Assembly: GCF_003334815.1 (NCBI RefSeq)
Contig: NZ_QOWO01000079.1
Reading direction: 5' to 3' (one strand)
From: Escherichia coli
Lineage (GTDB): Bacteria > Pseudomonadota > Gammaproteobacteria > Enterobacterales > Enterobacteriaceae
DNA length: 3,892 bases
Below the pieces are notes generated by a model that saw only the letters and a program-made list of their open reading frames with translations, was not told the DNA's origin and searched no databases. Below, piece by piece: positions 1,178-1,429 of the stretch. A program made the translations under genes and the position numbers. Position 1 is the stretch's first letter, and the number at the start of each line of letters is the position of its first letter.

Positions 1178-1429
1178 TCAATGAAGCGTATCCGGTATTG
1201 TTTCATTTCCCCTGAAGCCGATTAGCTCCAGCCGAATGCCTTTGCCATCGGGGGCCACGTTCTGCATTTCGCAGATACCACGTCGGGTCATGAGTGTGAA
1301 GGCTGTCATTGCCAGCATGGCTAACGCGTTTTCCTCGCTTCCGCTGCGTTTCTCGAGAGCATCGGCAATTTCTTCTATGCTCCCCACCTGAAAGCAAGAG
1401 TCGAATTCTTTACTCCACTTTTCTGACAT
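1178..1429 (-). CDS. Hypothetical small acidic protein (83 aa)
   Basis: ORF MSEKWSKEFDS...NETIPDTLH with plausible codon usage and a weak purine-rich RBS. Convergent with hok and adjacent to the IS66-family left end. No family recognised. Confidence 0.4.
   Translation of the reverse strand: MSEKWSKEFDSCFQVGSIEEIADALEKRSGSEENALAMLAMTAFTLMTRRGICEMQNVAPDGKGIRLELIGFRGNETIPDTLH

Follow-up and report, generated by a model that had tools for sequence, protein, structure and literature searches.

The locus and the identity of the gene

The DNA analysed here, referred to as the window, is a stretch of 3,892 nucleotides from Escherichia coli (RefSeq assembly GCF_003334815.1, contig NZ_QOWO01000079.1), and the object of the analysis is an open reading frame (ORF) at positions 1178–1429 on its minus strand. 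The ORF specifies a protein of 83 residues and 9.2 kDa, MSEKWSKEFDSCFQVGSIEEIADALEKRSGSEENALAMLAMTAFTLMTRRGICEMQNVAPDGKGIRLELIGFRGNETIPDTLH, which is acidic (14 Asp and Glu versus 9 Lys and Arg residues; pI 4.75) and has neither a signal peptide nor a membrane segment. It is flanked by a toxin-antitoxin locus, pnd, and by an insertion sequence (IS) of the IS66 family. The features of this part of the window are the following.

799–1169, plus strand: pnd, a type I toxin-antitoxin locus of the hok/sok family, recognised by the Rfam sok model and the PndA ORF; a neighbour and not part of the gene
1107–1177, minus strand: the 3' untranslated stretch that a transcript of the ORF must enter, complementary to the 3' end of the pnd mRNA and comprising fbi (1157–1169) and a GC-rich hairpin (1116–1138)
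1178–1429, minus strand: coding sequence of the 83-residue acidic protein, taken from the ORF listing with an ATG start; an IncI1 backbone gene (Hp25 of pESBL; WP_001291965.1)
1430–1484, minus strand: the remaining native 5' region of the ORF, 55 bp, identical to ColIb-P9 up to base 1484
1485–3755, plus strand: a decayed IS66-family element, likewise a neighbour and not part of the gene, delimited by the end of the match to IS-free plasmids at 1484 and by the tnpA/tnpB annotation in NZ_CP024481.1

The toxin gene pndA (951–1106, plus strand) and the ORF are convergent. The stop codon of the ORF (1178–1180) lies 9 nt past the end of the fbi-like element of pnd, and exactly 55 bp separate its ATG from the terminus of the IS66-family element. 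A preliminary description of the window, made from the sequence alone, had depicted an acidic ORF of 83 residues that is convergent with hok, stops just beyond an fbi-like element and starts ~55 bp from an IS66-family end, and all of this is confirmed by the ORF listing, the calculated pI, the match of the Rfam sok model to 799–956 (131.7 bits), the RNA fold and the point at which the match to IS-free plasmids ends.

The encoded protein is 100% identical to a protein of plasmid ColIb-P9 annotated as hypothetical (WP_001291965.1), and 82 of its 83 residues are identical in the allele of R64 and pESBL-EA11 (WP_001291964.1; O3K_25992). ColIb-P9, R64 and pESBL all annotate this coding sequence, at a site between pnd and excA. 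The pESBL-EA11 gene, Hp25 or O3K_25992, has the same length of 252 bp and the same distance of 71 bp from the pndA stop codon. The copy in the window differs from the pESBL/ColIb-P9 gene only in having an IS66-family element 55 bp upstream, and in residing on a backbone fragment whose trbA is cut by an IS1203-like element. The earlier suggestion that the ORF could belong to a plasmid backbone is therefore borne out by its identity with these plasmid genes. The ORF is present in 1,397 plasmids of the PLSDB collection, nearly all at identities of at least 95%, and in 879 of 5,426 complete E. coli genomes (16%), with 880 plasmid places versus 18 chromosomal ones. The preliminary description had recommended examining pnd loci that lack the IS66 insertion, and had reckoned with a chance ORF should related replicons contain no homologues and the ORF not be expressed. 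Homologues are present both beside such pnd loci and in related replicons, and about 1,400 plasmids carry the ORF.

Selection on the coding sequence

Near-identical plasmid copies say little about selection, and more diverged alleles were therefore sought; these are designated below by numbered loci (L) and proteins (P). Among the alleles of IncI1, L005 and L003, Nei-Gojobori estimates of dN/dS were 0.16, 0.20 and 0.19 at dS values of 0.50–0.85, and the differences were clustered at codon position 3. A six-frame control found only the annotated sense frame to be constrained, with the other five frames yielding ratios of 0.31–2.2 and containing 3–6 internal stops. A second, independent lineage, which is IncK2/Z-like (L016, L012 and L008), gave dN/dS values of 0.20–0.27.

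Protein searches returned full-length relatives with identities of 86% (P0027), 73% (P0048), ~50% (P0094, P0105 and P0106) and 46% (P0096), together with a relative from Salmonella that has 55% identity and a length of 81 residues when its true start is used. Homologues down to 44% identity are 81–85 residues long, differ by indels of whole codons only, and invariably have His as their last residue. A purine-rich motif resembling a Shine-Dalgarno sequence is located 7–14 nt 5' of the start codon in every lineage. Because of the dN/dS values, the frame-specific constraint and the recurrence of the Shine-Dalgarno-like motif across lineages, the ORF is judged from its sequence to be a protein-coding gene under purifying selection, and we consider it very probably a real, expressed gene. 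Its protein belongs to an orphan family that is confined to Enterobacteriaceae plasmids and genomic islands. The term “remnant”, which the preliminary description had also used, does not apply, as the gene is intact and its substitution pattern (dN/dS 0.16–0.27) is that expected under purifying selection.

The length of the ORF is by itself no evidence for a gene. When the window was shuffled 500 times, the resulting sequences contained on average 4.6 ORFs with 83 or more residues, and 99% of them had at least one; it is the conservation and the substitution pattern that exceed chance. The frame could in principle have arisen by chance, or be decaying and functionless, and have been conserved only through the recent spread of IncI1 plasmids. 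This would require low dN/dS ratios at substantial dS to arise in two lineages, constraint to fall on a single frame, full-length homologues at 44–55% identity to differ by codon-sized indels only, and the unit described below to have been acquired independently in unrelated loci, all of which argue against it. The abundance of equally long ORFs in shuffled sequence is compatible with such an origin, as are the high identity of the plasmid copies, which makes conservation within IncI1 a weak argument, the many truncated or extended variants of the protein that occur as singletons in the protein database, and the fact that the gene is dispensable and has been lost in some relatives. On balance, a chance or decaying frame is strongly disfavoured, and we consider it extremely improbable.

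An antisense ORF of 51 residues is located within the gene (1236–1391, plus strand), and equivalents of varying length are found in the homologues. It was rejected as a coding sequence, since its frame is interrupted by stops in other alleles and has a higher dN/dS.

A portable unit and its neighbours

The boundaries of the conserved unit were defined by BLASTN comparison of ColIb-P9 with the loci carrying the 86%- and 73%-identical alleles. Homology between IncI1 and L005–L007 extends over the ORF and 20–23 bp only, and homology between IncI1 and L003/L004 over the ORF, 79 bp upstream and 4 bp downstream. As the homology is confined to the ORF and short flanks, the conserved unit is a cassette of ~335 bp. 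This unit recurs in E. coli chromosomal islands that contain neither pnd nor IS66, which argues that neither the pnd locus nor the IS is part of it, and that the ORF is in all likelihood an independent single-gene accessory cassette. The L003 and L005 alleles themselves have no copy in the complete E. coli genomes.

Annotated records list the pndA product as a “Hok/Gef family protein”. In the RNA fold of the pnd mRNA (798–1176), the 5' GGGCGC pairs with GCGCCC at 1164–1169 (z = −7.7), and such pairing of the tac and fbi ends is typical of hok-family mRNAs. The ORF is adjacent to pnd and convergent with it, its 3' end abuts the fbi of the pnd mRNA, and the linkage with pndA is also seen in the IncK2/Z-like lineage. 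However, the ORF lies outside the mRNA bounded by tac and fbi, on the strand opposite to pnd, and its product is a soluble acidic protein rather than a membrane peptide of the Hok type. A tblastn search with PndA detected no hok gene in L003–L011, which carry homologues of the ORF, and the IncK2/Z plasmids L017 and L018 have kept pndA and lack the ORF. An 801-bp query comprising pnd and the ORF matched 1,941 plasmids, versus 1,397 for the ORF alone. The ORF was rejected as a component of the pnd system, as it is located outside the pnd mRNA and does not obligately co-occur with a Hok/Gef gene.

The two transcripts might nevertheless interact. The GC-rich hairpin at 1116–1138 is terminator-like on the plus strand, and on the minus strand the same hairpin is followed by a U-poor tail; it may terminate the ORF transcript. 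It is the sole hairpin before pndA, and with the stop codon only 9 nt from fbi, read-through into pnd is plausible. One could therefore imagine that the ORF acts mainly as an RNA, its transcript being complementary to the fbi and the terminal hairpin of pnd and modulating the processing, stability or activation of the PndA mRNA, or being modulated by it. The IncK2/Z-like lineage, in which another convergent gene ends 68 bp from the pndA stop codon, offers a parallel. Such a role is quite unlikely, given that the substitution pattern reflects constraint on the protein and not merely on an RNA, that the ORF is kept in four contexts without a hok gene, that pnd works in plasmids without the ORF, and that transposon insertions in Hp25 produced no maintenance phenotype (PMC4288162).

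On the other side of the gene, the match between the window and IS-free IncI1 plasmids stops at base 1484, and an IS66-type end, GTAAGCG, follows from 1485. The element in the window has its tnpA at 1570–2220. Compared with the copy in NZ_CP024481.1, its tnpB is frameshifted by an extra G near 2548 and its tnpC by a 17-bp deletion near 3272, and tnpC is cut at 3755 by an IS1203-like element. An IS66-family element occupies the site in only ~17 plasmids, versus ~1,400 that carry the ORF. The plasmids with the IS retain an intact coding sequence and match the window at 99.5–100% overall. The ORF was rejected as a passenger or accessory gene of IS66, as it lies outside the GTAAGCG end and mostly occurs without the IS. 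In NZ_CP024481.1, the IncI1 backbone does not resume past the IS, which suggests that the insertion marks a rearrangement boundary.

The native 5' region contains a Shine-Dalgarno-like AGAGAGA at 1437–1443, 8–14 nt ahead of the ATG. The L005 allele still shares the last 23 bp of this region, and in L003/L004 conservation extends over 79 bp. The IS, at −55, interrupts the 79 bp that accompany the ORF upstream in L003/L004 and takes the place of the outermost 24 bp of this presumptive control region; as the preliminary description noted, the IS end could supply or disrupt a promoter.

The two ends of the window (1–137 and 3756–3892) form a perfect inverted repeat of 137 nt that matches the end of an IS1203-like element of the IS3 family. 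Of trbA (135–662, minus strand), the left copy leaves only the first 175 residues, and the right copy cuts short the tnpC of the IS66-family element. The ORF is thus located on a fragment of IncI1 backbone that is bracketed by two inverted IS copies.

In IS-free plasmids, the ORF is found in the variable region between excA/traY and pnd-trbABC, with pnd downstream and a dqlB/AgrB-like type I toxin-antitoxin locus upstream; it is a component of neither. Within the 1.1 kb directly upstream of the ORF, ColIb-P9 contains three tandemly dispersed 107-nt repeats (L001 4884–5590, minus strand) that match the Rfam AgrB model with 59.4, 50.7 and 37.7 bits. Each repeat ends in a 14-bp hairpin and a T run, a strong terminator that would insulate the ORF on its upstream side, and dqlB, a DinQ-like type I toxin gene, is annotated near the repeats in R64 and pESBL. 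AgrB is the antisense RNA of the dinQ type I toxin, and the repeats constitute a multi-copy array of AgrB-like antitoxins on IncI1 plasmids. ColIb-P9 also has a second, partial pnd 5' region (L001 5058–5225, plus strand; Rfam sok 67.5 bits; an 80-nt repeat with 91% identity) with no hok ORF downstream, which may be an orphan Sok/PndB-like antisense RNA gene.

The other genomic contexts are diverse. In the IncK2/Z-like lineage (L016 875–1977; also L012–L015 and L008), a compact row of four genes, with the homologue in second place, converges on pndA and encodes, in this order, a 38-residue membrane peptide, the 85-residue homologue, a secreted DUF6515 protein and a secreted Pro-rich protein of 81 residues. 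Exactly the middle two genes of this row are missing in the IncK2/Z plasmids L017 and L018, and a remote relative of the 38-residue peptide is encoded in ColIb-P9, 1.1 kb upstream of the ORF (L001 5868–5960).

The 73%-identical allele (L004 326–580, plus strand; L003 5001–5255) is located at the distal end of an E. coli contact-dependent inhibition (CDI) array of orphan toxin and immunity genes. In L004 the homologue converges on the last orphan cdiA-CT-like module (797–1336, minus strand) at a distance of 217 bp, and no immunity ORF of at least 45 residues is present between the two. This last module comprises 179 residues, with a VENN-like motif at its start and a C-terminus rich in glycine zippers.

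A homologue from E. coli with 46% identity is found 111 bp downstream of hha and on the same strand, with a 140-residue ORF following 8 bp after it (L009 5680–6683). On pESBL, hha is likewise on the same strand, ~1 kb upstream of the ORF; ColIb-P9 and R64 have a HEAT-repeat-like ORF instead. A further context is an IS-riddled island, and the Salmonella homologue lies beside an IS200/IS605 element and a fimbrial gene.

Possible functions of the protein

Sequence comparisons gave no functional assignment. Pfam returned no match, even at E ≤ 10, for the ORF protein or any of 10 family members, and single-sequence and profile searches of NCBIfam and PHROGs returned none outside the family itself. 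No significant match was obtained with PADLOC (best E = 0.061), the best matches of a profile search against PDB sequences were designed repeat proteins, with AcrIIC4 at E ~1, and phage genomes contained no homologue. Beyond close relatives, a phmmer search of 1.84 billion representative proteins recovered just four small, diverged homologues (P0094, P0096, P0099 and the IncI1 cluster) and two repeat proteins, P0102 and P0104, which were rejected as compositional artefacts. The ORF was also rejected as a type II antitoxin. Its neighbours differ in every lineage (pnd, the CDI array, IS elements, hha, DUF6515 and a fimbrial gene), no Pfam DNA-binding domain of the RHH, HTH, AbrB or Phd type is detected even at E ≤ 10, and the protein is acidic.

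A phenotype for the gene has been published. In the transposon sequencing (Tn-seq) analysis of the IncI1 plasmid pESBL by Yamaichi et al. (PMC4288162, Table 2), Hp25 (O3K_25992; 80048–80299, minus strand) received a probability of 1.00 for being non-essential, of 0.00 for being essential for maintenance and of 0.00 for being required for transfer. According to these published data, the gene is dispensable for plasmid replication, partition and maintenance, for the killing of plasmid-free cells, and for conjugation in a laboratory host. In the literature, we found WP_001291965 mentioned in no paper and O3K_25992 only in this Tn-seq table, and the text of a bioRxiv study of IncI1 RNA-seq in the pig gut does not contain the gene. 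Both the gene, listed as a hypothetical protein, and its null phenotype were thus already on record, and it does not represent a new system.

These data bear on two specific roles. The proximity of hha, 111 bp upstream of the distant homologue in L009 and ~1 kb upstream of the ORF on pESBL, on the same strand in both cases, might suggest that the protein is a small regulatory partner, for instance one that modulates a silencer of the Hha/H-NS type or the expression of transfer genes. However, hha is absent from the ColIb-P9/R64 region and from other homologue contexts, the protein has no DNA-binding or known regulatory domain, and insertions in Hp25 affect transfer in neither direction, in contrast to the behaviour of hha itself (PMC4288162). 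A regulatory role is therefore quite unlikely, and the “small regulator” proposed in the preliminary description finds no backing in an acidic protein that has no DNA-binding or known domain and whose disruption leaves transfer and maintenance unchanged (PMC4288162).

Alternatively, the protein might serve as an adaptor or chaperone of the I-type (Dot/Icm-like) conjugative secretion system, in a role like that of the small acidic IcmS/IcmW adaptors. It has the size and acidity for this, and both lineages, IncI1 and IncK2/Z-like, retain synteny with the region of trbA (DotM-like) and trbC. This reading is highly improbable, as the gene is not needed for transfer (PMC4288162), chromosomal copies reside in islands without any type IV secretion system, and no Pfam similarity is detectable even at E ≤ 10.

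The best overall explanation, which we hold with middling confidence, is that the ORF is a self-contained backbone gene of IncI1 (I-complex) plasmids. Its protein would work on its own, as a small soluble binder or inhibitor, and might neutralise a factor of the host or of a competitor much as immunity or anti-defence proteins do, with a benefit confined to particular hosts or encounters. This mechanism is tentative and held with low confidence. It is suggested by the small size and acidity of the protein, its lack of known domains, its restriction to mobile elements and to a narrow range of taxa, and the occurrence of its genes here and there among toxin-antitoxin and polymorphic-toxin loci.

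Two groups of proteins invite comparison. Anti-restriction proteins of the ArdA/Ocr type and anti-CRISPRs are small acidic inhibitors encoded by mobile elements. The ORF protein resembles them in being small, acidic and bound to mobile elements, in forming a narrow orphan family, in being encoded by a lone gene that has an upstream region of its own, and in having no laboratory phenotype in a defence-poor host. It differs from them in the distance of its gene from the ardA-psiB-ssb leading region, in matching nothing in PADLOC or PHROGs, and in lacking phage homologues. The second comparison is with CdiI-type immunity proteins, which are likewise small, acidic and cytoplasmic, and the 73%-identical allele is indeed located at the end of an orphan cdiA array. 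In contrast to CdiI genes, however, the homologue is on the opposite strand and does not immediately follow a toxin C-terminal domain, and neither on IncI1 plasmids nor in the other loci is the ORF accompanied by a toxin gene.

Several observations weigh against the self-contained binder or inhibitor that we favour. On R64, ardA, psiB and ssb are located on the far side of oriT-nikAB, and the ORF lies beyond trbCBA-pnd; it is thus at the last-transferred end of the plasmid and not in the leading region, which is atypical for anti-defence genes. The CDI-adjacent copy is on the strand opposite to the array and has no adjacent cognate toxin, no conserved partner gene was found across seven genomic contexts, and nothing in the analysis points to a binding partner. 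The predicted structure, with three helices and three strands, has a moderate pLDDT of 70–75, and the fold library contained no significant structural neighbour, so that the fold provides no functional hint. A scan of the upstream sequence detected no sigma-70 promoter consensus, either with the IS or in IS-free ColIb-P9, and we found no expression data for the gene in the literature. Finally, some relatives have lost the ORF.

It is also conceivable, if doubtful, that the protein founds an unrecognised family of small mobile-element inhibitors with immunity or anti-defence functions, a new fold of three helices and three strands, and a portable 335-bp cassette. Were this so, the ORF product would shield plasmid or host from a specific toxin or defence system absent from laboratory K-12 strains, and the cassette would have its place in the toxin-antitoxin-rich variable region of I-complex plasmids as well as in islands of E. 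coli and Salmonella.

IncI1 plasmids are important vehicles for resistance genes, including those for extended-spectrum β-lactamases, and numerous genes of their backbone continue to be annotated as hypothetical. The main effect of our result is to remove a possible oddity. The analysis presents the ORF as a real and, from its substitution pattern, selected gene that is separable from both the pnd addiction locus and IS66 and recurs as a tiny portable cassette in genomic islands. As such, it is a modest candidate for screens of plasmid accessory functions such as immunity, anti-defence and host interaction.
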